From positions 1 through 64,000 of the IMG/VR virus record IMGVR_UViG_3300003890_000014: a stretch of DNA of 64,000 nucleotides. One strand, 5' to 3'. The position numbers and the translations under genes were made by a program. This document shows positions 1 through 11,773 of this stretch, piece after piece. The notes under the pieces were generated by a model, which did no database searches, was not told where the DNA came from, and was given only the letters and a program-made list of their open reading frames with translations. Source of the stretch: a virus. Numbering within the stretch: position 1 is the first letter of the stretch; each line of letters begins with the position of its first letter.

Positions 1-219
1 AGGGCTGATTGGGAGTATAGTTGGGAAGTTGAGCGTATAACTCGAACTCAGTTTCTTCAGAGGCTTTGCGAAAGTACAGTTCGATGGAGGATTATCACAA
101 CTCCGGTATCTATGGGGTGGGGATGTCCTACATGTGGGCGAGTAAACGCTCCATATATCCGACAGTACGAGTGCCCTGGATTTGTAACAATTACAACGTC
201 TACGGAGATCAAGGTATGA
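1..219 (+). CDS. Partial hypothetical protein with Zn-ribbon-like motif
   Basis: Frame 1 is open from base 1 (RADWEYSW...GWGCPTCGRVNAPYIRQYECP...EIKV*). Its stop overlaps the next ATG (ATGA at 216-219). Confidence 0.6.
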   Translation, partial: RADWEYSWEVERITRTQFLQRLCESTVRWRIITTPVSMGWGCPTCGRVNAPYIRQYECPGFVTITTSTEIKV

Positions 220-779
220 AAACTAGACCCACATTGATCTTACCTGGATTTCAACTTGAATTGACACCTATGGGAGAATTTATTAAAGGTATTCCTACTA
301 AATGGATTGAATCCGCTGAAACGGAACCCGTAGTGGAATATTTTCAAGCTAAAGGATTTCATGATTATTCAAAAAAAGTTGTAAAGCTAACGCCAATCCC
401 TAGATACGATAAAACAGTTTTAGTGCCAGATTCAGATTTTTTTATCAAAGAGTATAAGTTTTCTTTCTTTAAAGATGCTATTGCAAAGATTACTCCTTTT
501 AAAGAAGTTAAAACTTTAGATTTAAATACTTTGGCGGAGTTTTCAGTAATGATGGCAACCCAGTCTCCTTTATCTGCTTATATGCGAGGGGTTTTGTTTA
601 ATGCTGGAATTTTTATAGGAAATTTTGAAGATTTTTATTTTTTAGAATCAGAAGATGAACATGGCGTAAAAGCTATTGCACTTGCACATATGACCCCTAG
701 AAGTAGTTTTGTAGTTAAATTCGAGAATTTCTCGGCTTTAAGAGACGCTGTTCAATGGGAAGCGAGTAAAAGATGGTAG
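216..779 (+). CDS. Hypothetical protein
   Basis: ORF track 66..779. The ATG at 216 is preferred (GGAG upstream, ATGA coupling). Confidence 0.7.
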   Translation: MKTRPTLILPGFQLELTPMGEFIKGIPTKWIESAETEPVVEYFQAKGFHDYSKKVVKLTPIPRYDKTVLVPDSDFFIKEYKFSFFKDAIAKITPFKEVKTLDLNTLAEFSVMMATQSPLSAYMRGVLFNAGIFIGNFEDFYFLESEDEHGVKAIALAHMTPRSSFVVKFENFSALRDAVQWEASKRW

Positions 780-1015
780 AAAAAATCGGACTTAAGATAG
801 TAGAACTTATTCATGACATTACTCAAAAAGACTATTGTGTATCATTTAATGGTGATTTTGAAGGAATGGTTCGAATTGATTACACTTATGAATGGGATGA
901 TACTTTCTATGAACACGAACATGTAGGTTTTCCAGACTGTGAACGAATTCACCTTGAGAAGAATATCATTCGATCTTTGAGTGAGTTTTTAGAGAAACAT
1001 AAAGGAGATGTATGA
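773..1015 (+). CDS. Hypothetical protein
   Basis: Overlap-coupled 80-aa ORF. Confidence 0.7.
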   Translation: MVEKIGLKIVELIHDITQKDYCVSFNGDFEGMVRIDYTYEWDDTFYEHEHVGFPDCERIHLEKNIIRSLSEFLEKHKGDV

Positions 1016-1224
1016 GTTGGTTTTTATTGATGGCCCTATCGTGCCCTAAGACCCTTATGGATAATCAAACTAATTTCAAATGGACTGCACATGATTATAA
1101 AACTCTAGAGTACGCTAAAAAACGATGTGTTGAAATTTATCCAGATTCGAAATGCGTCAAGTATTTTAAGAAATGGGGAAAACAAGATTATTCTGTAATT
1201 TGTGGAGCGGAGGTTGAAGAATGA
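1012..1224 (+). CDS. Small Cys-containing, possibly exported protein
   Basis: AGGAG RBS, hydrophobic N-terminus (WFLLMALSC), 4 Cys. Confidence 0.65.
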   Translation: MSWFLLMALSCPKTLMDNQTNFKWTAHDYKTLEYAKKRCVEIYPDSKCVKYFKKWGKQDYSVICGAEVEE

Positions 1225-1454
1225 AACAATATATTACTCGATATATTCGAAAAGGTTGTACAGTTGAACATATTACCACAGAAAGCTCTATGAAGTATAC
1301 AATGATGAGTGATAGAGACGAGATGTTTGTGGTTGATCCTACAGTAATGATTGTTGTAACCCATACTGACGGTATGAAGGAAATTGTGTACAAAGGTCAT
1401 CTAGTTAGAGATGAAGAAGAAAACCCTTATAAAAATACGTCAGGAGCATGGTGA
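1221..1454 (+). CDS. Hypothetical protein
   Basis: GAGG RBS and ATGA coupling. Confidence 0.65.
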   Translation: MKQYITRYIRKGCTVEHITTESSMKYTMMSDRDEMFVVDPTVMIVVTHTDGMKEIVYKGHLVRDEEENPYKNTSGAW

Positions 1455-1595
1455 TGTCTAAAATTGTAGATATTGATGGGAATGAGATTGAAGTGCCTAT
1501 TAGGGCGAAGAGTACTTATGAAAGGGAATTTACCGCAATGAAGGCTGCATTATTTTAATATTGAGATGAAACTAAGACATGGAGAAGAAAAATGA
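1454..1595 (+). pseudogene. Small hypothetical gene, probable +1 frameshift in a T4 run
   Basis: MSKIVDIDG...AALF stops at 1556-1558. Removing one T continues NIEMKLRHGEEK* to a TGA overlapping the next ATG (1592-1595). Confidence 0.45.
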
Positions 1596-1957
1596 AAACA
1601 AAAACAATAAAAATTGAATACAAACATCGAAATTATGATACTTTCGGCGATCCCACTATATTTGAGTGTAAGACCAAGAAAGTTAAATCTGACACTTATT
1701 CAAGTAAAGACGTTCATAAAGAATTAATCTACTCTAAGAAAGATTCTAGATGAACTCCTAAAGTCAAAGGAAAAGTAGCGGCAAAGCTTATTAATCATGG
1801 AAATGGTTTTAAAGTTAAATTTTTTGATGGTAAAGAGTTAGAACTTGATTACTGTCAAGCTCAATATCTACAGCTTTTACTAGAAGAAGATCAAATCGAA
1901 TCTCCAGGAGAATATCGTATTACAAGGACGGAAACTAAGAAAAGAGCAAAAAAATGA
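1592..1957 (+). pseudogene. Hypothetical gene with in-frame TGA at 1751-1753
   Basis: One frame from ATG 1592 to TGA 1955-1957 (coupled to the next ATG) with a single stop: YSKKDSR*TPKVKGKVAAKLINHGNG...LDYCQA. Confidence 0.7.
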
Positions 1958-2190
1958 AAAAGCATTTAGTGACTTTAATAACAAGTTTGCTAAATGGTAT
2001 ACCACTTTTAATGTTCTTAATTTATATTTCGTATTCTTTAGAAGCCCCAAGGAGAAAGATACAAAAACAACAAGATTGTTACTCAAAGTGTGACGTCGAA
2101 ATCTTTAGGCCGTGTTGGGATACTGAAGTGACAGAGCGTCGTGTAACTGAGTATAAATCGTGTAATGAAGAATGTGGGAGGATAGAATGA
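1954..2190 (+). CDS. Membrane-anchored Cys-rich small protein
   Basis: N-terminal hydrophobic helix, CxxxC motifs. Confidence 0.65.
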   Translation: MKKHLVTLITSLLNGIPLLMFLIYISYSLEAPRRKIQKQQDCYSKCDVEIFRPCWDTEVTERRVTEYKSCNEECGRIE

Positions 2191-2450
2191 GAATAGTAAT
2201 TCCTCAAGATGGTCAACCTGTTAAATACTGGGAAGATGGAACGGTAAAGTATATTCGTAAGTGCATTTACTGTGAAGGGGATAATCCAGAGGTTTGGTTT
2301 CAAGTTCCTCCTAGATTTGAATCGGCTTATAAAATAACAGAAGAAAATGCTATTCCAGTGGAAACCACGGTTAAGCGAGCTTTGTATAAAAGAGTCGAAG
2401 AACCTAACTGTGCAGGGATTGCACAATACCATTTTGTGAGGCTTGAATGA
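2187..2450 (+). CDS. Hypothetical protein
   Basis: GGAGG RBS before ATG 2187, CxxC motif. Confidence 0.65.
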   Translation: MRIVIPQDGQPVKYWEDGTVKYIRKCIYCEGDNPEVWFQVPPRFESAYKITEENAIPVETTVKRALYKRVEEPNCAGIAQYHFVRLE

Positions 2451-2902
2451 AGAAAAAGAATCGTAAACCTCATCCTTTTGATGATCTACCTAAGCATGTG
2501 AGACTTATTGCTAGACTTAGGCGTATAGCCAAGGAATATGGGGCCAGACTATATATCTGGACCTCAGACGATGGCTCTTCGGGACAGTATTGTATGCTTA
2601 CTCGACATTTGTTCGTAGCGAGGGACCTAACCTATCGTCAAACCGTTTCCGCCTTTTTTCACGAGCTTTGTCATTTTTTAGACCATAGAGATGGAATCTT
2701 TAAAAGATTTTATTCAGCATCCACCTCGCTCAAAGATAATCGATTCCTGGCTTTACGAGCAGAGCTTCACACGGATAACCGTGCCCAAAAACTTACTAAA
2801 GAATATTTTCCAAAACTTAGGTACGTTAAAGCGTACCGTAGTAAACAGGATATTACATTTTTAATGGATTACTACAAAGACGGAAGGATTAAGAAAAAAT
2901 GA
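2447..2902 (+). CDS. HExxH metallopeptidase-like protein (ImmA/IrrE-like)
   Basis: FFHELCH motif followed by a downstream E in RAELHTD. Confidence 0.6.
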   Translation: MKKKNRKPHPFDDLPKHVRLIARLRRIAKEYGARLYIWTSDDGSSGQYCMLTRHLFVARDLTYRQTVSAFFHELCHFLDHRDGIFKRFYSASTSLKDNRFLALRAELHTDNRAQKLTKEYFPKLRYVKAYRSKQDITFLMDYYKDGRIKKK

Positions 2903-2954
2903 TAAGTAAGAACCAACGAGTTATTAGGAATTTCCGAATAACTGGGAGAAGTAT

Positions 2955-3164
2955 ATGAGTCAAAAATTTAAATGTGAAATAACAGAAACCTCAAGAGATA
3001 TCATAGCGAGACTGTATTTACATAATTTGATCTTTATTGTACCTCCACATAGAGGTATAGGGCTTCAAAGCTTTACTAACGAAGAAGAATTAAGAACCTT
3101 AATAAAAAAAATATTATGTGAACACGTTGATAAAATGGAAGTTGAGTTAAAAAATGAACGATAA
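2955..3164 (+). CDS. Hypothetical protein
   Basis: GGGAG RBS, 69 aa. Confidence 0.6.
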   Translation: MSQKFKCEITETSRDIIARLYLHNLIFIVPPHRGIGLQSFTNEEELRTLIKKILCEHVDKMEVELKNER

Positions 3165-3669
3165 TAAAAGAGGACTTATATACAGCCTATTAGGACACTT
3201 CCTATTACTAGCTCTATTAGCTTTTAATGGATTTCATACTAGAGGGGGGTCTGGAGGAGAACAACTGGAAACTAAAAGTGGAGGTAAAAAAGAATTATAA
3301 AAAATTACCGACAAACCCTCTGATAAGTTAGAAGTTGAAGTTGTCGAAAGTCCTACCTCAGAAACTCCTAAAAGAGCAAAAACTGCTCATGAAGACCAAG
3401 AATGTGAAAAATCATTTGGTGGAATCGGAGTAACGGTTAATGTCACTCCTCAAGGTCAACTTGTGATGGAAGTGCATAAAGGTTGTCCAGCAGACCTCGC
3501 TGGGTTTAAACCTGGAGATTTGATCTTAAACCAAAACAACCAACTTAGAGGAGAAGTAGGAACAGAAGTTTCTATTGATTACATAACTAGAGAAGGTCAC
3601 TCAGGAACAATCAAAGTGATTAGGGATAAAATTTGCTATGAAGAGACAGCTAGACCGAAAGGCCCTTAG
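3154..3669 (+). pseudogene. Membrane-anchored PDZ-domain protein with in-frame TAA at 3298-3300
   Basis: Single frame: TM segment LIYSLLGHFLLLALL, then KKEL*KIT, then PDZ signature FGGIGV...VHKGCPADLAGFKPGDLIL. Confidence 0.75.
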
Positions 3670-3847
3670 ACGGTCACTTTGGGCTGCACTTGCGAGGCTT
3701 ATCGGAGTTGGTCTTGGAGCCGGAGCTGGTAGTTTAATACACCAATTAATTGGAGGAGGATTCAATGGTTGGGGTATTGCGATGGGAATGGCAGGTGTAA
3801 GTTTTGTTTTGATGGTATTTGCAGAATATGAGAGGGAAATAGGATGA
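3638..3847 (+). CDS. Small two-TM membrane protein
   Basis: Two Gly-rich hydrophobic segments. Confidence 0.65.
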   Translation: MKRQLDRKALRRSLWAALARLIGVGLGAGAGSLIHQLIGGGFNGWGIAMGMAGVSFVLMVFAEYEREIG

Positions 3848-4104
3848 AAAAACTTAAATTTAAACTCAATAAAGCTATTGTGTTTGATCCTAAATGGTGA
3901 GGTAAATACGAAAAATCTTTTTGGGAAAAGATATTCGGAAACACTCATCATCTTGAGCATCCTTTAAGGCCAGGAGAAGTTGTTTACTATTTAGGTGAAA
4001 TCCCTAATGTACCAGGACATTGCTTAGTAGCGAAATATTCAAGACCAATTATAGCAATGGTTCATCCAGAAGATTTTAGAAAGGCAAAAGAGGAGGAACT
4101 ATGA
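3844..4104 (+). pseudogene. Hypothetical gene with in-frame TGA at 3898-3900
   Basis: ATGA-coupled at both ends, one stop: FDPKW*GKYEKSFWE...GEIPNVPGHCLV...HPEDFRKAKEEEL. Confidence 0.7.
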
Positions 4105-4292
4105 GTCAAAAATATTTAATTCTAAAAGAACTCATTTCGGAATGGATTGAGCGAGAAATGGAAAATTATGAAGAAGCAGTCAGACTTGTAGGCACGGAAT
4201 GCCCAGGAGCCTGTTTAGCTGCTGGAGCACTAGATGCTTATCAACAGGTTTTACGGGATATTGAGGAACTTGAAAGAGAGGCTTCCGTATGA
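4101..4292 (+). CDS. Hypothetical protein
   Basis: GAGGAG RBS, acidic 63 aa. Confidence 0.65.
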   Translation: MSQKYLILKELISEWIEREMENYEEAVRLVGTECPGACLAAGALDAYQQVLRDIEELEREASV

Positions 4293-4615
4293 GCTATGAC
4301 ACTACCCTAATGGCAGATGTTGGTGGTCCCGAGTTAGTTCCGGTTGGAGAGGTGAGAAATTGTACTTGCAACAATTATCACATCTTTAAAGCCGCAGGGC
4401 TTGAAATGAAGTATGTTCATGGAACTTTAGCTTCTGAGGTCATCCCTGTTTTGGAAAAAGCCCTCCATTACCTAACCAACCCAGATAATCGAGAATCTTT
4501 ACTTAAACTAGAACCCGAAAACAAATAAGGGGGTTTAGACGATTCAATTGATTTTGTAACCCAATTTTTAAAAATGACCCGTCAAATGCCAAAAACTTAC
4601 GTAATGATATCTTAA
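4289..4615 (+). pseudogene. Hypothetical gene with in-frame TAA at 4526-4528
   Basis: LEPENK*GGLDDSIDF... continues in frame to TAA 4613-4615, just before the next RBS. PEN.WG is the motif I would expect at this position. Confidence 0.65.
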
Positions 4616-4623
4616 GGAGCTTT

Positions 4624-4941
4624 ATGATTAAAAACAAACAAATCTTAGATCTTAGAGAAAAAAACGAACGAATTTTAGAATTGATGGAACATTTTTATCC
4701 AGGTTCAATGTCTTATGGCGGACATCCAATTTGGGTAAAAGCTGAAGACGTTAAGATTATTAAAAAAGAGTTTTCTAAAGCTTTGAAAATCGTAAAGTCA
4801 GATGGAGGCTTTAAAGCGATGAGCCTTCCCAAACCCAAATGGCCCAGCGAATATGTCATAGAACTTTTAACTTACGGGCGAAATCTGTATCGGGAAGAGG
4901 CTTCCAAATATTACGATGGAATGAGAGCTTTACTAGATTAG
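4624..4941 (+). CDS. Hypothetical protein
   Basis: AAGGAG RBS, 105 aa. Confidence 0.7.
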   Translation: MIKNKQILDLREKNERILELMEHFYPGSMSYGGHPIWVKAEDVKIIKKEFSKALKIVKSDGGFKAMSLPKPKWPSEYVIELLTYGRNLYREEASKYYDGMRALLD

Positions 4942-4954
4942 TCAGGTATAAACT

Positions 4955-5179
4955 ATGAAAAAAATTTATTTAATTGATCAAAGAGATATTTTACCCGAAA
5001 ACGACAACGGGTCCATGATTATCGAAGCTTACTCCCCTAAGGACGCAGCTTTTAACCGAGCTAAAGAGCTTTCAAAACAAGAACGGGGAATTTGGTACTT
5101 CTTAGTCCAAGAGTTGATCGTAGACGCGACTGAAGCGAAGGCCGTGCAAATTTTATACCCAGATGACCCGAAGGAGTAG
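4955..5179 (+). CDS. Hypothetical protein
   Basis: ORF within an operon-like run. Confidence 0.6.
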   Translation: MKKIYLIDQRDILPENDNGSMIIEAYSPKDAAFNRAKELSKQERGIWYFLVQELIVDATEAKAVQILYPDDPKE

Positions 5180-5181
5180 TA

Positions 5182-5409
5182 ATGATGCATAGGGAAATTG
5201 CCGATCATATCGGTTTATTAATTTTAGGTCCTAAACGACATTCCTACCAAGCCATCGCAGAACAGATTTGTGAACACTGGCCTGGATACATTGATTTCGT
5301 TTATGGCGAATACGCTCATAGAGATCTTTATGGCAACCAACTTTTAGGTATGGAACTCGTCCACCACGCCTGCAGAATTCTAGATTATAACTTTCACAAG
5401 CATTTATGA
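5182..5409 (+). CDS. Hypothetical protein
   Basis: AAGGAG RBS. Confidence 0.6.
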   Translation: MMHREIADHIGLLILGPKRHSYQAIAEQICEHWPGYIDFVYGEYAHRDLYGNQLLGMELVHHACRILDYNFHKHL

Positions 5410-5492
5410 AATACCTCCTAGCCGCCTATCTCATCGCTTCAGCTATAGGGATACTTTTATATCTCTTACTAAAACAGTCAGGTATAATCTAG
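5406..5492 (+). CDS. 28-aa single-TM peptide
   Basis: MKYLLAAYLIASAIGILLYLLLKQSGII, ATGA coupled. Confidence 0.4.
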   Translation: MKYLLAAYLIASAIGILLYLLLKQSGII

Positions 5493-5944
5493 TCAGTAAA
5501 ATTTATAATACCAGTAATTGACATTAGGGTCAATTCAAAGACATATAGATAAAACCTTCCCATTAGTCAGCATTAGTACTTATTAGCCATTATTAAAGCA
5601 TAATACAGGCAAACCCCCCTTTAGATACTCAAATGCCAGGAGGACCCATTTCCAATCGTTTTACACCACCCCACCCCACCTTGAAAGTAATACGATCAAG
5701 TATTTACCTGAGCAAAGCAGTTTGTAGGTTTTAAGTATACAATCGTATTCTTTAGTAATATAGGCGGACATTTGCTAACTATAGTAATTACATCAGGTAT
5801 TATTGAGAGGGGTGTAGTTGTGAGTATCCACTAGGTACAGTATAGGGGGGTGTCTTTACTGATCTAGGGATATCCCCCCGTACTCATTGAAGAATTACTT
5901 ATAGGGGTATGTCAATAGTCTAACACTTGCCCGTATAATAACGG

Positions 5945-5970
5945 TGCACTATAATAAGAGTTATAGTGCA
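5945..5970. repeat. Perfect 10-bp inverted repeat TGCACTATAA-N6-TTATAGTGCA
   Basis: Read directly from the sequence. Confidence 0.9.
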
Positions 5971-6081
5971 TTATACTCTATTAGTCGTTATCAAATTTTT
6001 TAATTTTTTCGGTTATGTGTCACGGGATAGTATATCAATCCTATACCCTCAAAACCCATTGTATACCTTTCGAGTCATATC

Positions 6082-6127
6082 AATCTCATATCTAAATCTC
6101 ATATCTCAATAGGGTATTCAATAGGGT
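6082..6127. repeat. Tandem direct repeats AATCTCATATCT x2 and TCAATAGGGT x2
   Basis: Copies at 6082/6095 and 6106/6118. Confidence 0.85.
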
Positions 6128-6459
6128 CTTTACATGACACAATACCTGGCAAAATATAGCATAACAATTCAATAAGTTATAACTCTCAAAATACCCTAGT
6201 AATAACACTATATTATACTGTTTAAGCCTTATACAGTGACTAATAATTCAACGGTTTGCCTAATAGCCTAATAATAACCCTCTATTAAGTCGGTCATTAG
6301 GGTCATAACATACCTAAAATGACAAAATTCAGTATATAGGTCATATACGACGTATATTAATACTATTAGAGTTATTTATGGCATCGTCATTGCAATGCAT
6401 ATTAAATAATTAATACTTGACCAAAAGGGTCGAGTGAAAAACGAAAGGAATAAACGGCC

Positions 6460-6624
6460 ATGAAAAACTTTAATGAAATTGACTTAGTTGATATGTTTGA
6501 GATTTCGACCCTAAGTGACGCTATATATAGCCTTGAAGATCATTGCAAGGGTATGACTGAAAGTGAAGTCAATAGCCTAATAGACCGATTGATTGAAAAC
6601 CTTAATGATATCAACTTGAAATAA
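6460..6624 (+). CDS. Small acidic early protein (54 aa)
   Basis: GAAAGGA RBS; 12 D/E against 4 K/R. Confidence 0.65.
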   Translation: MKNFNEIDLVDMFEISTLSDAIYSLEDHCKGMTESEVNSLIDRLIENLNDINLK

Positions 6625-6627
6625 TAC

Positions 6628-6655
6628 TTGACTATTTTAATAGGTTTGTTATCCT
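6628..6655 (+). promoter_or_regulatory. Sigma70-like promoter
   Basis: TTGACT-16-TATCCT with extended -10 TG. Confidence 0.55.
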
Positions 6656-6679
6656 GATATTAAGAGAAAGGCGGAATAT

Positions 6680-6811
6680 ATGAGAAACAAGACTTTTAAA
6701 TCGACGGAAAAATTGAGTGTTAGCGAATCGGCGCAAGCGGAAAAAAACCTTTTTGTCATGGCCTTAGTACTTAGTGCAACGGCTATATGGCACCTATTAG
6801 GCGGGTTTTAA
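6680..6811 (+). CDS. 43-aa protein with C-terminal TM segment
   Basis: GAAAGG RBS; LFVMALVLSATAIWHLLGGF. Confidence 0.55.
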   Translation: MRNKTFKSTEKLSVSESAQAEKNLFVMALVLSATAIWHLLGGF

Positions 6812-6812
6812 T

Positions 6813-7019
6813 ATGTTTAAGATCAACCCTAAAGATATGACTGGCAACGTCAAAGTCATACTAGATCAAATAACGGCCATTGAAAACACTATAACTTTGC
6901 TTGCCTTGACGCAAGGGGTCAATAGTGAAAAGGGTCGGTCAATGCTTGCTAAAAGGCATGAGTTAAAAGAAAAATTGAAAAAACAAGTTTGGTTTAACAA
7001 TGAAATAGGCAAAAAATAA
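6813..7019 (+). CDS. Hypothetical protein
   Basis: 68-aa ORF in the early run. Confidence 0.6.
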   Translation: MFKINPKDMTGNVKVILDQITAIENTITLLALTQGVNSEKGRSMLAKRHELKEKLKKQVWFNNEIGKK

Positions 7020-7027
7020 GGAGTGTC

Positions 7028-7111
7028 ATGGAATACCTAAGTCAAATTGTACTGATTGAATGTTATATATGCGTTGCAGTCTTAGGAATAGGAGTTATTT
7101 TCGAAAAATAA
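7028..7111 (+). CDS. 27-aa hydrophobic peptide
   Basis: AAGGAG RBS; MEYLSQIVLIECYICVAVLGIGVIFEK. Confidence 0.45.
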   Translation: MEYLSQIVLIECYICVAVLGIGVIFEK

Positions 7112-7114
7112 GGC

Positions 7115-7142
7115 TTGCAATACTTGAGTGTTTTGGTACTAT
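7115..7142 (+). promoter_or_regulatory. Sigma70-like promoter
   Basis: TTGCAA-16-TACTAT with extended TG. Confidence 0.55.
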
Positions 7143-7185
7143 TAAATAAACCGACCCTGGAAGGGTCACGAAAGGAAAAAATAAA

Positions 7186-8037
7186 ATGAAAACTTTAAAC
7201 CTTGAAAATGTAGGCAACGTATTAGATGCCCGATTGACTGAAAACCGTACTATTGAAAATGTAGTGACGAAGTCATTTATGCAAACCGAAAGGTATTCAA
7301 ACGTGAGTGAAAAATTCCAAGTTATTCAGCCTGCCATGATCGGCGGGGTTTTGAGTGAAAACGGTTTTAAACTGGTGTCATTGATAACAGGTAAGGCAAA
7401 ACACGAAGACAAAAAAGACTTCCAACGTACTATTGCCCGATATCGTGAATTAGATGCCTTTGAAGTTGACGGGTTGCACCTTGACCTATTGTATATTTCT
7501 AATCATATGGGTCGAGGTCGAGATAGACTGATTTTGTCTTTTATGCGTGGCGTATGCGCTAACCAATGGAATACAGGCAAAGGTTTTGACGCTGTATATA
7601 TTCGTCATTCGGGCAACCCTATTGCAGACCTAAGAGATGGAATTGCACGCATATTAGGTCAACGGTCTAAACTAGTGCAAGTCATTCAAAAAATGCAAAA
7701 CGTGACGTTAACAGCGGGTCAAATTGAGACGCTTGCCCGTCAATATGCTGAAATTAGACTTGATGGGGTCGAAAACGTCATTGACGTTGATTTTAAATCG
7801 CTTGCAAAAATTCACCGTCAAGACGATGCAAAACTTGACCTTTTCACCGTTGCGAACGTATTGCAAGAAAACGTCATTAGGTCAAGACTTAAGTACCGAA
7901 TCAAAACCGTTGACTCAAACGGTCAAACCGTTGAAAGGAATCAATCAACTAGGGTTTTAAGAGGGTCAAGCGTCAAATTAATTGACCTTAATGCCAAAAT
8001 GTTTGATGTTGCAATGCAATACCTTAATGCAGCGTAA
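7186..8037 (+). CDS. DUF932-like phage/plasmid protein
   Basis: SNHMG...FMRGVCAN...IRHSG and RQDDAKLDLFTVANVLQENVI resemble DUF932 motifs (R.vC.NG; R..D...DLW..fN..QEN). Confidence 0.75.
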   Translation: MKTLNLENVGNVLDARLTENRTIENVVTKSFMQTERYSNVSEKFQVIQPAMIGGVLSENGFKLVSLITGKAKHEDKKDFQRTIARYRELDAFEVDGLHLDLLYISNHMGRGRDRLILSFMRGVCANQWNTGKGFDAVYIRHSGNPIADLRDGIARILGQRSKLVQVIQKMQNVTLTAGQIETLARQYAEIRLDGVENVIDVDFKSLAKIHRQDDAKLDLFTVANVLQENVIRSRLKYRIKTVDSNGQTVERNQSTRVLRGSSVKLIDLNAKMFDVAMQYLNAA

Positions 8038-8158
8038 CTCAATAGAAGGGTTGACCTTGCCCGAAAGGTTTTGCATCGCAAAATTGCTAACTTTATAGCG
8101 GAAAAAAGACTCAAAAAGGTTGCATAACTCAAAACAAAACTTGAAAGGACAAAACAAA

Positions 8159-8416
8159 ATGAAAAAAACCAAGACTTTTAAAATAGGCAAATATTCAAAT
8201 TTTGGCAAGTGGCGATTGACCCTTGATGGTCAAACCTTGAGAGTACAAGGCATTGACTGGACAACGGACAAAGTACTTGAAGACTTGACCTTTCATGCGC
8301 AAGACTTTAGTAATATAGAGACTTTTTTAGTTGATAACATGACACCATATTACGCCGAAAAACTTATGCAATGGGTCAACCCTAAGCATGATCAAAACTT
8401 TTTTTCAGATTACTAA
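8159..8416 (+). CDS. Hypothetical protein
   Basis: GAAAGGA RBS before ATG 8159. Confidence 0.7.
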   Translation: MKKTKTFKIGKYSNFGKWRLTLDGQTLRVQGIDWTTDKVLEDLTFHAQDFSNIETFLVDNMTPYYAEKLMQWVNPKHDQNFFSDY

Positions 8417-8441
8417 ACCAAAAACCAAAGGAGTGAATCAA

Positions 8442-8708
8442 ATGAAAAACAAAACGTGTCAATATTGCAAGACTTCAACCCATATGACTAAAGTACTTGA
8501 CGAGACTTATGGCATTGTATCCGAACGGTATCGGGTTTGCTTTGAGTGTCAACCTTCAATGGACAGTGGCGACTATACCGACCAGTCAAGGCCGCGGGCA
8601 TTAAACGGTGACGATGGAGATTTAAACTATTTTGCTGAATCGTCTCATGCACCTGATATTGACGAGACTTTAGACGTTGAACTAACAGACCTTGAAGAGG
8701 TAGTATAA
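8442..8708 (+). CDS. Zn-finger protein with acidic tail
   Basis: CQYC...CFEC and a D/E-rich C-terminus; AGGAG RBS. Confidence 0.7.
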   Translation: MKNKTCQYCKTSTHMTKVLDETYGIVSERYRVCFECQPSMDSGDYTDQSRPRALNGDDGDLNYFAESSHAPDIDETLDVELTDLEEVV

Positions 8709-8710
8709 CC

Positions 8711-8875
8711 ATGAAATATCAACCTTTTATGTTAGAACTTTGGGAGTTAACAGGCGAAATCGGTACTATTGCAGAGACCGACGACCGTTATGTTGACGTA
8801 TATCGTGCACTGTCAGATGCTTTTGATCGTGCCGAAGAAAACGAATTGATATTGTCTGAAGAATACGATGATTAA
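8711..8875 (+). CDS. Small, highly acidic protein (54 aa)
   Basis: GAGG RBS; 16 D/E against 4 K/R. Confidence 0.65.
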   Translation: MKYQPFMLELWELTGEIGTIAETDDRYVDVYRALSDAFDRAEENELILSEEYDD

Positions 8876-8877
8876 AC

Positions 8878-8907
8878 TTGACAGTTATACTCAGAAAATG
8901 TTATAAG
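8878..8907 (+). promoter_or_regulatory. Sigma70-like promoter for rIIA
   Basis: TTGACA-18-TATAAG with extended TG. Confidence 0.55.
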
Positions 8908-8929
8908 CCTAAATGAAGGAGTCAAACCA

Positions 8930-10939
8930 ATGAAAATGAAAAACCATGCTAATAAATTAGAAACTAATGCTCAAATTGTATCGCAAAATTTTGGTATCGG
9001 TGACGCATCGGTGGTTATAGAGATTTTGCGCAATCGTCTTTACCAGCATAAAATTCGGACTTTAGTGCAAGAATATATCTGCAATGCTAGAGATGCACAC
9101 CGTGAGATTCATTCGACTGCAAGGTTAGAAGTTACGCTGCCCACAAAATTTAACCCTACGTTTTCAGTGCGTGATTTTGGTTTGGGTACTAGTCCCGAAC
9201 GTATGGAGAGAGTTTTCGTCCTTTATGGTGCATCAACTAAACGTGATAACAATACTCAAACGGGAGGGTTTGGGATTGGTGCAAAATCGGCTTGGAGTTA
9301 TACCGATTCATTTACTATCGTAACTTATATTGACGGTGTCAAACGGGTTTACGTTGCCCATACCGGAGTTAATAACAATGGACGACTTGACCTTATTGAA
9401 ACTTCACACACTAAAGAGTCAAGCGGTACTGAAATTAAAATAGCTGTTAACCCTAACGATTGGAAGGAATTCCGTAACGCTGCACTTCGAGCAACGTATT
9501 TTTGGGATATACGACCGAAATTTAAAGGAATTAATGAAAGTGAAATACCTACTCGTGAAATTGGATATCGAATCGGTAAGCAATTTGAAGTGCAATCAAA
9601 CAATTTACCTAGTTTTGTTACTTGGAGTAAAGGATATTACAACGAGAAAAAAGATTTACTTGTAATTGATGGTATTCCATATCCTATTGATGACGAATTA
9701 CAAGAAAAAATCAAAGGTTTTGACGTACTCAATGGGTTGATTAATCAAAGTAAATTTATTCTTTACATTGATAGTGGAGTGGTGGAAGTGTCTGCATCTC
9801 GTGAGAGTGTGGCCGACAGTATTGAGACTGTCAATGCGCTAGAGAATCTAATTAAAAGGCTCACACTCGAAGTGCGGAGCTGGATTGCAGATCAATTCGG
9901 TAAAGTAAAGTCAGTTAATGAGTTTCTGACTACTTATAGAACACTTAAAGACAATTTCAATGTAGAAGGATTCTCAAAATATGACGGTTATGAAATTAAT
10001 CACTACGGCAACCTTAATCATAAAGATTTGTTACCCGCTGTAGTAACTATTAAACACGTCACTAACTTAGATATAAGGGGTCGAAAGGTTACTTCTACTA
10101 TTAAGAGAACTCAAACCACAATGACAATCGACCGTATAGGCGCATTGTATCAAGTAGATGTAGAGGAATCAAAAGTTATTCAAAATCGCAGATTCAGAGC
10201 ATTATTTGCTACAAATAAATATATAACTTTGATTACTCCTAAAAGTGGAAGCTTATCAACTCAACTCATCAAGGATTTAGGTATCAAAAAACTATCAAGT
10301 GTAATTCCGATTGCAGTCGAGAGAGAAATTAAAGAATTTGGCATAACACCAAAACGTAAATCAGATGAGATCTGCGCTCATTTACCTACTAGTCGTGGGT
10401 TTGACTCTTTGACCGTGAGTGTTGATCAAAATGAAGTGACTTACATTTATGAGGAGAAGAATACACTTGCCAAACTCGATCGCTTTGAGCTATATGATTT
10501 TGCTAAATACCTTAAAGATTATAAAGATATGGTATTGATTGGACTTGCTCCGACGAGTATTGCTAAGATTAAAAGCAATCCTAAGTTTGTTAAGATAAGT
10601 ACGTTCAAGAAAAAATGGACGTTGACAGCTAATGAATTAAGTATGCTAAAATCTCAATTGTCTACTCATATTTATGATATCAAAAAGGTATTGAAAAAAG
10701 GGTATGAAACAATCAAAGACAAAGAAGTGAAAGATTTGGTTAAATCTTATATAGATATCACTAATACAAAATTATTACCTAAGTTAGTGGTGTCCGAATT
10801 TGCTCATGAAGCTAATGACTTTTTGAACAATGAAAGGGCTGTGATTAAGCGAATGAAATTGAAATACCCATTAGTATTCCAAATTCAAGACGCTAACATG
10901 AGTGAAGAGTTAGTAACTTATATCAATGCAAAAAATTAA
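8930..10939 (+). CDS. rIIA: RIIA-like protein (N-terminal GHKL ATPase)
   Basis: EYICNARDAH, VRDFGLG, STKRD...GGFGIGAKS, SASRE; adjacent to rIIB. Confidence 0.9.
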   Translation: MKMKNHANKLETNAQIVSQNFGIGDASVVIEILRNRLYQHKIRTLVQEYICNARDAHREIHSTARLEVTLPTKFNPTFSVRDFGLGTSPERMERVFVLYGASTKRDNNTQTGGFGIGAKSAWSYTDSFTIVTYIDGVKRVYVAHTGVNNNGRLDLIETSHTKESSGTEIKIAVNPNDWKEFRNAALRATYFWDIRPKFKGINESEIPTREIGYRIGKQFEVQSNNLPSFVTWSKGYYNEKKDLLVIDGIPYPIDDELQEKIKGFDVLNGLINQSKFILYIDSGVVEVSASRESVADSIETVNALENLIKRLTLEVRSWIADQFGKVKSVNEFLTTYRTLKDNFNVEGFSKYDGYEINHYGNLNHKDLLPAVVTIKHVTNLDIRGRKVTSTIKRTQTTMTIDRIGALYQVDVEESKVIQNRRFRALFATNKYITLITPKSGSLSTQLIKDLGIKKLSSVIPIAVEREIKEFGITPKRKSDEICAHLPTSRGFDSLTVSVDQNEVTYIYEEKNTLAKLDRFELYDFAKYLKDYKDMVLIGLAPTSIAKIKSNPKFVKISTFKKKWTLTANELSMLKSQLSTHIYDIKKVLKKGYETIKDKEVKDLVKSYIDITNTKLLPKLVVSEFAHEANDFLNNERAVIKRMKLKYPLVFQIQDANMSEELVTYINAKN

Positions 10940-10942
10940 TTC

Positions 10943-10971
10943 TTGACAACGTCGATCTGGTTTGCTATAAC
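10943..10971 (+). promoter_or_regulatory. Sigma70-like promoter for rIIB
   Basis: TTGACA-17-TATAAC. Confidence 0.7.
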
Positions 10972-10993
10972 AATAATAGGAAGGAAAAACCAA

Positions 10994-11773
10994 ATGAACT
11001 ATCATGTATTAAATAACTCTTTAGTGTTGAATTACAATAACAAAACCGTAGTAATTGATCGCAGTGATTCTCGTTTTGCTCCAGTATTGAATTGTATTCG
11101 AGAACAACGCCTTGATGATATTCCTACCATAGTTGATATTGAACAACAATACGCTGATCGTGGGCTTGAATTGCGTGACGGTCTATTACATATTGATTCT
11201 CAACCTTTGCCGATTGAATTGAGTGACCGCATTATTGCTTTCAAAGAAGAAAATTTACCTTTAGATGGGTTGCTAAAGTTTTGGAATAATCTAAAACAAA
11301 ATCCCTCTTTCAACGCCCGCAAAATGTTATTTAAATTCTTAGAACACAATGGGCATCCGTTGACTTCAGATGGATGTTTTATTGCTTATCGTGGTATTAC
11401 TGAGGATTTTAAAGACGTTCATTCACGCTCATTTGATAACCGAGTAGGTTCAGTATGTGAAATGGATCGAATCTTAGTTGATGATAACCCTAACAATACC
11501 TGCTCAAATGGTTTGCATGTCGCTTGTTTTAATTATGCAAAAAACTTTGGTCAGAAATTAGTTGAAGTCAAAGTCAATCCTCGTGATGTAGTAGCTGTGC
11601 CTACAGATTACAATGGGACTAAAATGCGAGTATGTCGTTTTGAAGTTGTAGCGGAATGCGCTATAATGCGCACTGAACATTATATTGATAAGTATAAAGA
11701 GGAATCATGTGATAATGGTAGTTGTGAATCATGCTCATGTGGATCTGAAAATGATGAAGACTGGAGTGCTTAA
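10994..11773 (+). CDS. rIIB: RIIB-like protein
   Basis: FWNNLKQNPS, DGCFIAYRG, TCSNGLHV, KVNPRDVVAVPTDYNGTKMRVCRFEV. Confidence 0.9.
   Translation: MNYHVLNNSLVLNYNNKTVVIDRSDSRFAPVLNCIREQRLDDIPTIVDIEQQYADRGLELRDGLLHIDSQPLPIELSDRIIAFKEENLPLDGLLKFWNNLKQNPSFNARKMLFKFLEHNGHPLTSDGCFIAYRGITEDFKDVHSRSFDNRVGSVCEMDRILVDDNPNNTCSNGLHVACFNYAKNFGQKLVEVKVNPRDVVAVPTDYNGTKMRVCRFEVVAECAIMRTEHYIDKYKEESCDNGSCESCSCGSENDEDWSA

Follow-up and report, generated by a model that had tools for sequence, protein, structure and literature searches.

A 4-kb AGCT-free stretch upstream of rIIA in a phage genome as the probable by-product of a conserved, unusually worded early gene module

Why should a common tetranucleotide be missing from some 4 kb of a phage genome? 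The question is raised by IMG/VR record IMGVR_UViG_3300003890_000014, a single-contig phage genome of 112,813 bp (labelled G000), of which the first 64 kb form the window analysed here. The window holds 348 copies of the tetranucleotide AGCT and the genome 610, i.e., one per 185 nt, yet the copy at 5441 is followed by the next only at 9442, ~500 nt into the rIIA gene. No other gap in the genome is as long as these 4,001 nt, the runner-up measuring 1,937 nt, and by hand arithmetic the probability of such a gap anywhere among 610 Poisson-spaced sites is ~2.5e-7. The first-pass annotation of this DNA had reported roughly 28 copies in positions 1-5444 and none between 5441 and 9442, and had read the stretch as first-injected virion DNA purged of a restriction site. 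Its counts are borne out (the computed number is 28, and the empty stretch is far from the genome background rate). The gap is thus highly non-random when compared to the genome, yet unremarkable when compared to the composition of the stretch itself. Hence, we consider it probable that AGCT is missing as a secondary consequence of the unusual composition of a block of immediate-early genes, with no purge of the site as such.

The missing tetranucleotide is one of many words whose use changes here. In a sliding chi-square analysis of strand-symmetric 4-mers, no part of the genome deviates more strongly than the region 5.3-9.3 kb; when its core is used to train a likelihood-ratio profile, an island is delimited at ~5950-8880, with no similar window elsewhere in the genome. 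The sliding-window k-mer check that the first-pass annotation had proposed therefore returns the island as the top 4-mer outlier. Its k-mer entropy is the genome minimum, below all 72 bulk windows, and its guanine plus cytosine (G+C) content is that of the bulk (0.368 vs 0.366). From bulk to island, the relative abundance of AG/CT falls from 1.15 to 0.84 and that of GA/TC from 1.10 to 0.93, and that of CpG rises from 0.77 to 1.11. Observed against expected counts are 42 vs 114 for AGC/GCT, 15 vs 71 for AGAA/TTCT and 136 vs 64 for GAC/GTC. The stretch had also been described as rich in TTGAC/GTCAA and poor in TCT/TCC words, with a return to normal composition inside rIIA. Computation agrees on each point: TTGAC/GTCAA is ~6-fold enriched (46 vs 8.4 expected from the remaining genome), AGA/TCT and GGA/TCC are depleted (90 vs 186 and 46 vs 98), and the likelihood-ratio profile is back at bulk by ~8.9-9.6 kb. 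The codons follow suit, with island vs bulk shares of 0.22 vs 0.50 for the alanine codon GCT, 0.06 vs 0.41 for GGA, 0.19 vs 0.44 for AGA, 0.13 vs 0.38 for TCT and 0.55 vs 0.23 for GAC; third-position G+C is 0.37 in the island as against 0.25 in the bulk. The island is a distinct and probably early module with the G+C content of the bulk and a word use of its own.

This word use is not confined to one genome. Relatives were found through rIIA, by a protein search (a family of ~40% identity on contigs of 78-177 kb) and then a profile of that family, with which 26 IMG/VR loci were fetched; three relatives were fetched whole (G001, 110.7 kb; G003, 116.3 kb; G005, 176.9 kb). Ten of these loci match rIIA over its full length and span 34-52% G+C; each reaches its highest TTGAC/GTCAA density in a window 1-9 kb upstream of rIIA, which in nine of the ten also has few AGAA-type words and raised CpG; the more distant T4-like and jumbo loci have no such signature upstream of rIIA. 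In each of the three whole relatives this zone is the top genome-wide compositional outlier, with G+C near bulk and k-mer entropy under every bulk window. The shift vectors, which compare word use of zone and bulk, correlate at r = 0.27-0.75 among six zones of the clade. For each of these codons, at least two of the three whole relatives shift in the same direction, the exceptions being that G001 keeps AGR and G005 keeps GGA. Only one island gene, that of a DUF932 protein, is present in the relatives' zones, with orthologues in L005 (54%), L004, L006 and L010; the small genes around it are not conserved.

This distribution bears on the alternative that the first-pass annotation had itself raised, namely recent horizontal acquisition. 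Import from a genome whose oligonucleotide signature differs would accord with codon use and k-mer signature distinct from those of the bulk, and with the presence of DUF932, a family typical of plasmids and integrative elements (10.1101/2025.06.20.660599). However, the G+C content is that of the bulk, a zone of the same signature sits upstream of rIIA in ten relatives, including ones whose rIIA is just 35-43% identical, and the DUF932 gene is orthologous across these zones. Because the zone is conserved upstream of rIIA across relatives, we treat recent acquisition as excluded for practical purposes and grant it only a very small probability. The module probably belongs to a previously undescribed clade of rIIA/rIIB phages of ~110-180 kb, in which the island is old and conserved.

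When AGCT is measured against the vocabulary of the island, most of its deficit is accounted for. The gap should hold 9.7 copies as judged from its own dinucleotides but 3.3 as judged from its trinucleotides (0 seen, P = 0.04), and for the core at 5950-8880 the trinucleotide expectation is 1.9 (0 seen, P = 0.15). In the bulk of this genome and of the three relatives, AGCT occurs at 1.3-2.3 times the base-composition expectation, equal to the trinucleotide expectation. When the island proteins are recoded with bulk codon use they yield 6.9 copies, and with island codon use 2.9, for which P(0) = 0.05. Over 2 kb of coding sequence the expected number drops from ~11 to ~3 because of protein composition and codon choice. 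The 500-nt extensions flanking the island are expected to hold ~3 copies each.

A purge would have the gap be the first-injected end of the virion DNA, cleared of AGCT through its exposure to an AGCT-specific restriction enzyme of the host before protection is expressed. In its favor, besides the high significance of the gap relative to the genome, are AGCT counts below synonymous-shuffle expectation both in the island (0 vs 3.65, P = 0.016) and in the first-step-transfer genes of phage T5 (17 vs 27.4), two results that also tell against a pure by-product. Moreover, the compositional shift resembles that of T5 first-step-transfer DNA, the contigs of several relatives stop 1-1.5 kb past the zone, and two rIIA loci, L012 and L022, are wholly without AGCT, so that AGCT-cutting enzymes are probably relevant in hosts of this phage group. 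The class of sites that restriction would act upon nevertheless behaves in the opposite manner: the island has 70.6 palindromes of 4 bp per kb vs 59.8 in the bulk, and 16.7 vs 14.3 of 6 bp, an excess that recurs in the zones of the three relatives. TGCA (33 vs 12.9), ACGT (18 vs 8.1) and TATA (47 vs 24.2) are individually enriched 2-2.7 fold. In the relatives' early zones AGCT stands at 0.9-1.2 times its trinucleotide expectation. The most depleted words of the island are non-palindromic AG/GA words, a depletion common to phages of 34-52% G+C, and the 127-bp end repeat of one relative looks like an assembler overlap. The description of this DNA as restriction-purged is accordingly unsupported, because phages that differ widely in G+C have lost identical words, unlike what a host-specific restriction effect would produce; we hold such a purge to be quite unlikely. 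What word use leaves of the deficit is attributable to chance or to an AGCT-specific component that is weak at most. As a separate observation, the distant loci L012 (21.8 kb) and L022 (17.8 kb) lack AGCT altogether and L019 and L021 have almost none, over 18-22 kb; their avoidance spans the whole locus, unlike the local gap described here.

The first-pass annotation had likened the stretch to T5 first-step-transfer DNA and T7 early DNA, and this analogy could be examined with the same shift vectors (3-mers and 4-mers), using the first 50,000 bases of T5 and the complete T7 genome. The mean shift of the clade correlates with the T5 first-step-transfer shift at r = 0.75 for 3-mers and 0.64 for 4-mers, and with the T7 class I shift at r = 0.48 (k = 3) and 0.40 (k = 4), reaching 0.61 for the first 3.2 kb; control windows of T5, T7 and this genome give r of zero or below. 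The analogy consequently stands for the compositional shift and falls for the restriction-purge mechanism attached to it, i.e., early-exposed DNA is a fair comparison and purged DNA is not, leaving the original proposal partly supported. Within T5, the first-step-transfer DNA (1-9140) is a clear compositional island in its own right. As compared to the rest, it has 22-26 vs ~52 AGAA-type words per 2 kb, a CpG observed/expected ratio of 1.35-1.49 vs 0.5-0.9, and 3-6 vs ~10 AGCT per 2 kb, and AGA plus AGG make up 0.16 of the arginine codons of its genes vs 0.42 elsewhere. The T5 shift is a codon shift: its purine words do not fall short of what synonymous shuffles give. The direction of change is the same in T5 and here (AGAA down, CpG up, with AGCT about halved in T5), and the layout is comparable: the T5 segment (left terminal repeat 1-10,219) combines a few kb of small genes for the host polymerase with an untranslated, repeat-rich block of ~1 kb. 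The two differ in that T5 encodes the pre-early proteins A1, A2 and dmp, of which scans of all island proteins against PHROGs and Pfam found no homologues (DUF932/phrog_12094 being the only family recovered), and in that T5 lacks the GTCAA/TTGAC saturation of this clade (16 vs 11.2 in shuffles).

DnaA boxes have been described for the injection stop signal of T5 (10.1101/866236). In G005, exact DnaA boxes (TTATCCACA) number three in the entire genome, and all of them fall within 78 nt of its non-coding block (G005:C1:176582-176659), with a one-mismatch box nearby, which suggests an origin-like element or one like the T5 injection stop; the non-coding blocks of G000, G001 and G003 contain no DnaA boxes. 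In T7, class I (1-7588, from promoters A1-A3 to terminator TE) is likewise the entering end, transcribed by the host RNA polymerase, and its shift correlates with that of this clade, though more weakly; its Ocr and RNA polymerase genes have no counterpart in the module here. A third comparison is provided by the leading regions of conjugative plasmids, which, according to Shaw et al. 2026 (PMC13478746), are of distinct composition, G+C-richer at silent sites and codon-adapted, with no consistent depletion of short palindromes. In both cases DNA that is expressed first, or here would be, is compositionally distinct without consistent palindrome loss, and the DUF932 family is common to both. They differ in that plasmids enter single-stranded.

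Beyond the shift shared with T5 and T7, the module has a second peculiarity, the saturation with TTGAC/GTCAA. In the island coding sequence the word is found 33 times as against 12.2 +/- 2.8 in synonymous shuffles that hold the proteins and island codon use fixed; in the same shuffles AGAA/TTCT is reduced (7 vs 22.7), as is GAAC/GTTC (4 vs 13.7). With four genomes combined, GTCAA is the most favored 5-mer of this test. Favored words occur together with their reverse complements, and so do avoided ones (CTTGC/GCAAG, TTGG/CCAA, GTAA/TTAC, AGAA/TTCT), and therefore double-stranded DNA is indicated in place of mRNA. Valine is encoded as GTC almost exclusively before AAN, and in that context GTC is the valine codon in 5/5, 9/10 and 10/14 cases (P = 3e-4 to 4e-3). 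The DUF932 gene alone has 16 sites vs 6.0 in synonymous shuffles; among its orthologues the excess is significant in three of five, with the sites at non-homologous positions, so that motif density is maintained across orthologues and position is not. Density is 16 per kb in coding as against 4.5 per kb in non-coding DNA, and all permitted reading frames are used. Dimeric or hairpin sites were considered and rejected, since TTGAC and GTCAA show neither a preferred spacing nor a flank consensus.

We know of no described counterpart of this clade-specific saturation of coding sequence. Our proposal, which we put forward as a tentative possibility, is that the GTCAA/TTGAC words, kept by site turnover throughout the clade, are a candidate cis-acting array read by a protein that recognizes -35-like DNA, marking the immediate-early DNA either for rapid capture of the polymerase or for silencing at a later time. 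TTGACA is the word recognized by region 4 of sigma-70, and the candidate readers could be this region of the host sigma-70, a phage sigma-region-4 protein or the DUF932 protein. The phage does encode a protein of the second kind (104 aa, 93,959-94,273, minus strand; PF04545 at E = 7e-6, above the curated cut-off), with homologues at 52-55% identity in G001, G003 and G004. The stand-alone protein or the host sigma may be the reader, which we offer as a lead only. We also observed that this protein has a Cys/His-rich N-terminus and a sigma-70 region-4 helix-turn-helix, and that its gene is the first of a long minus-strand block, outside the window.

One could go further and derive the whole anomaly, AGCT deficit included, from a restricted vocabulary imposed by dense arrays of protein-binding words, with translational selection playing a minor part. 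The minimal k-mer entropy in each of four genomes, the pairing of favored and avoided words as reverse complements, and the loss of AGAA/TTCT beyond synonymous shuffles all fit such a scheme, as does the finding that relatives carry extra saturating words of their own, such as GTCTCAA in L011. Yet the T5 first-step-transfer DNA displays the AG/GA-poor, CpG-rich shift with no TTGAC excess, and there it is explained by codon choice (purine words z = -1.5 in shuffles); furthermore, no binding protein is known. We therefore view arrays as the sole cause as unlikely. The second, phage-specific saturating word merits description on its own account: GTCTCAA is present in 34 copies over 6.6 kb of L011 (2300-8900) and 12 copies in L006 (1800-5000), and TGAGACA in 26 and 11 copies, respectively, with a coding-strand bias.

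Taken together, we advance the following mechanism as the likely, though by no means assured, explanation of the AGCT gap. The stretch would be an immediate-early module, comprising a non-coding block of ~1 kb, cassettes of a sigma-70-type promoter, stem-loop and ribosome-binding site, small genes and DUF932, and ending at the promoter of rIIA. Two layers would be superimposed in it. The first, which we take to be common to DNA that is expressed first by an unmodified host because the shifts of T5, T7 and this clade correlate, would have genes destined for instant expression by unmodified host machinery avoid the codons and words of the bulk (AGA/AGG, GGA, GCT, TCT and AG/GA steps) and use CGN, GGC, GAC and AAC instead, thereby raising CpG. 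Two thirds of the AGC/GCT trinucleotides would be lost along with them, which would bring AGCT from ~5.4 per kb down to 2-3 expected in the island, where zero is within chance; chance would then have carried the gap outward, into non-coding DNA on one side and the first part of rIIA on the other. The second layer would be peculiar to this clade: on both strands, GTCAA/TTGAC saturates the module's coding DNA to a degree for which neither codon use nor protein sequence accounts, and these words might serve as a cis-acting DNA signal for a protein recognizing -35-like DNA, either to recruit the polymerase early or to silence the module later.

Several results weigh against this explanation. On the side of the shared shift, TTC and ATC go down and ATA goes up, along with the rise of GAC and AAC, which is unlike classical optimal-codon use; the T5 first-step-transfer DNA is not measurably closer than T5 bulk to the word signature of E. 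coli (38 kb); and adaptation to the codons of the host is no more than a possible cause of the shift. On the side of the motif, the base after TTGAC is least often A, the sites lack a preferred spacing or orientation, and G005 has the motif excess with no detectable sigma-region-4 homologue. Complete promoter-like sites are not enriched either (12 vs 14.4 in shuffles). A reading of the words as many promoters was itself rejected, given these numbers and a genome-wide scan that showed no clustering. Phage transfer RNAs (tRNAs) that would compensate for the bulk codons were also rejected for this phage, tRNA genes having been found in none of G000, G001 and G003.

The phage is myovirus-like and encodes a portal, large terminase, DNA polymerase, primase-helicase, GroEL and a baseplate protein. 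It has no close relatives in the deposited-phage collection, where a megablast of 5000-10000 found no match. Its plus-strand genes form a run from ~94.5 kb across the contig junction to 13.7 kb. All island genes lie on the plus strand, seven small genes occupying 6460-8875 with DUF932 the only one of a known family (Table 1); a PHROGs scan of the genes upstream, at 66-5409, gave nothing useful. In L010 (3430-4447) and L008 (1-1455), too, the zone is preceded by non-coding DNA of this kind.

Table 1. Features of the AGCT-free stretch and its flanks, in window coordinates
Feature	Position	Strand	Basis or remark
AGCT-free stretch	5445..9441		no AGCT; largest gap in the 112.8-kb genome
Non-coding repeat-rich block, ~1 kb, 5' of the early genes	5410..6459		only open reading frame of at least 40 aa is a 48-aa frame at 5966-6112, without support in any search
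G6...C6 inverted repeat in the non-coding block	5845-5879		sequence reading
Core compositional island	5950..8880		likelihood-ratio boundaries; top 4-mer chi-square outlier; low k-mer entropy
Small early gene, 54 aa, without known family	6460..6624	+	
Predicted sigma-70-type early promoter cassette (TTGACT, 16 nt, TATCCT) with upstream AATAATAC motif	6628..6655	+	consensus scan
Small early gene, 43 aa, without known family	6680..6811	+	
Small early gene, 68 aa, without known family	6813..7019	+	
Stem-loop before ribosome-binding site	7152-7168		
DUF932 protein, 283 aa	7186..8037	+	Pfam PF06067 6.4e-15; phrog_12094
Small early gene, 85 aa, without known family	8159..8416	+	
Small Cys-rich early gene, 88 aa	8442..8708	+	weak homologue downstream of rIIB in L010
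Small acidic early gene, 54 aa, last of the island	8711..8875	+	
Promoter-like site before rIIA (TTGACA, 17 nt, TTATAA)	8878..8906	+	sequence reading
rIIA	8930..10939	+	phrog_612 at 3e-78; first ~500 nt AGCT-free, of intermediate composition
rIIB, bulk composition, conserved right flank of the module	10943..11773	+	phrog_609 at 4e-59; 54-63% identical in nine relatives

The regulatory elements between these genes are repetitive. A cassette AATAATACTTGAC ... TATCCT lies ahead of small genes, and an almost letter-for-letter copy is found in the relative L010 at 4633; promoter-like cassettes are thus kept in that relative. Within the present genome, a near-identical 14-mer upstream of the promoter cassette recurs at 6408-6421 and 6619-6632 (93% identity). 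Promoter-early stem-loop cassettes have reportedly been described from the hyperplastic regions of T4-type phages by Arbiol, Comeau and Krisch in 2010. The arrangement there corresponds to the one here, in that near-identical promoter repeats alternate with small, fast-evolving genes and a stem-loop precedes the ribosome-binding site; such cassettes account for the intergenic repeats, but not for the motif excess within coding sequence. We further noted a 47-nt direct repeat of 70% identity, one copy of which (6558-6604) encodes C-terminal residues of the 54-aa protein and the other (7203-7249) N-terminal residues of the DUF932 protein; its sequence suggests a partial duplication inside the module. 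The inverted repeat of the non-coding block, composed of a G6 run and a C6-7 run over 35 nt, is also present at G003:C1:90350-90384, in a genome whose rIIA is just 43% identical, and L010 has CCCTAA-like tandem words at 4160-4280. The DUF932 protein itself has no sequence match in the PDB, no PADLOC family and no significant Foldseek match. Its structural model has a predicted local distance difference test score (pLDDT) of 78, and no VIA-align Z exceeds 6.0, which is under the noise threshold given for the tool. Residues 35-160 of the model, in its N-terminal domain, are weakly similar to YbjN/chaperone-like folds and to the DNA-binding (C-terminal) domain of T4 MotA, at Z 4.9-6.0 (4.9 for MotA) and thus also below noise. 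Two high-G+C phages with DUF932 homologues (L001 and L002) were uninformative.

As for the DNA ends, this 112,813-bp contig has no end repeat, and the 127-bp end overlap of G001 is taken to be the assembler overlap of a circular assembly. The contigs of three relatives end within ~1.5 kb beyond the zone; the repeat-rich block there may simply break assemblies.

For the study of phage genomes, the case illustrates that choices of codons and words can incidentally strip a region of one restriction site, and that so striking a loss is best judged against the sub-words of the site, against palindromes in general and against relatives. In T5, T7 and this clade, which are unrelated lineages, the early DNA that depends on the host shifts its word use in a like direction, and this could serve as a sequence-only marker of immediate-early modules in uncultured phages. 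The motif saturation, in turn, points to a putative reader of the word; if the proposed array is true, it would be a new way for phages to label one temporal class of genes at the level of the DNA.

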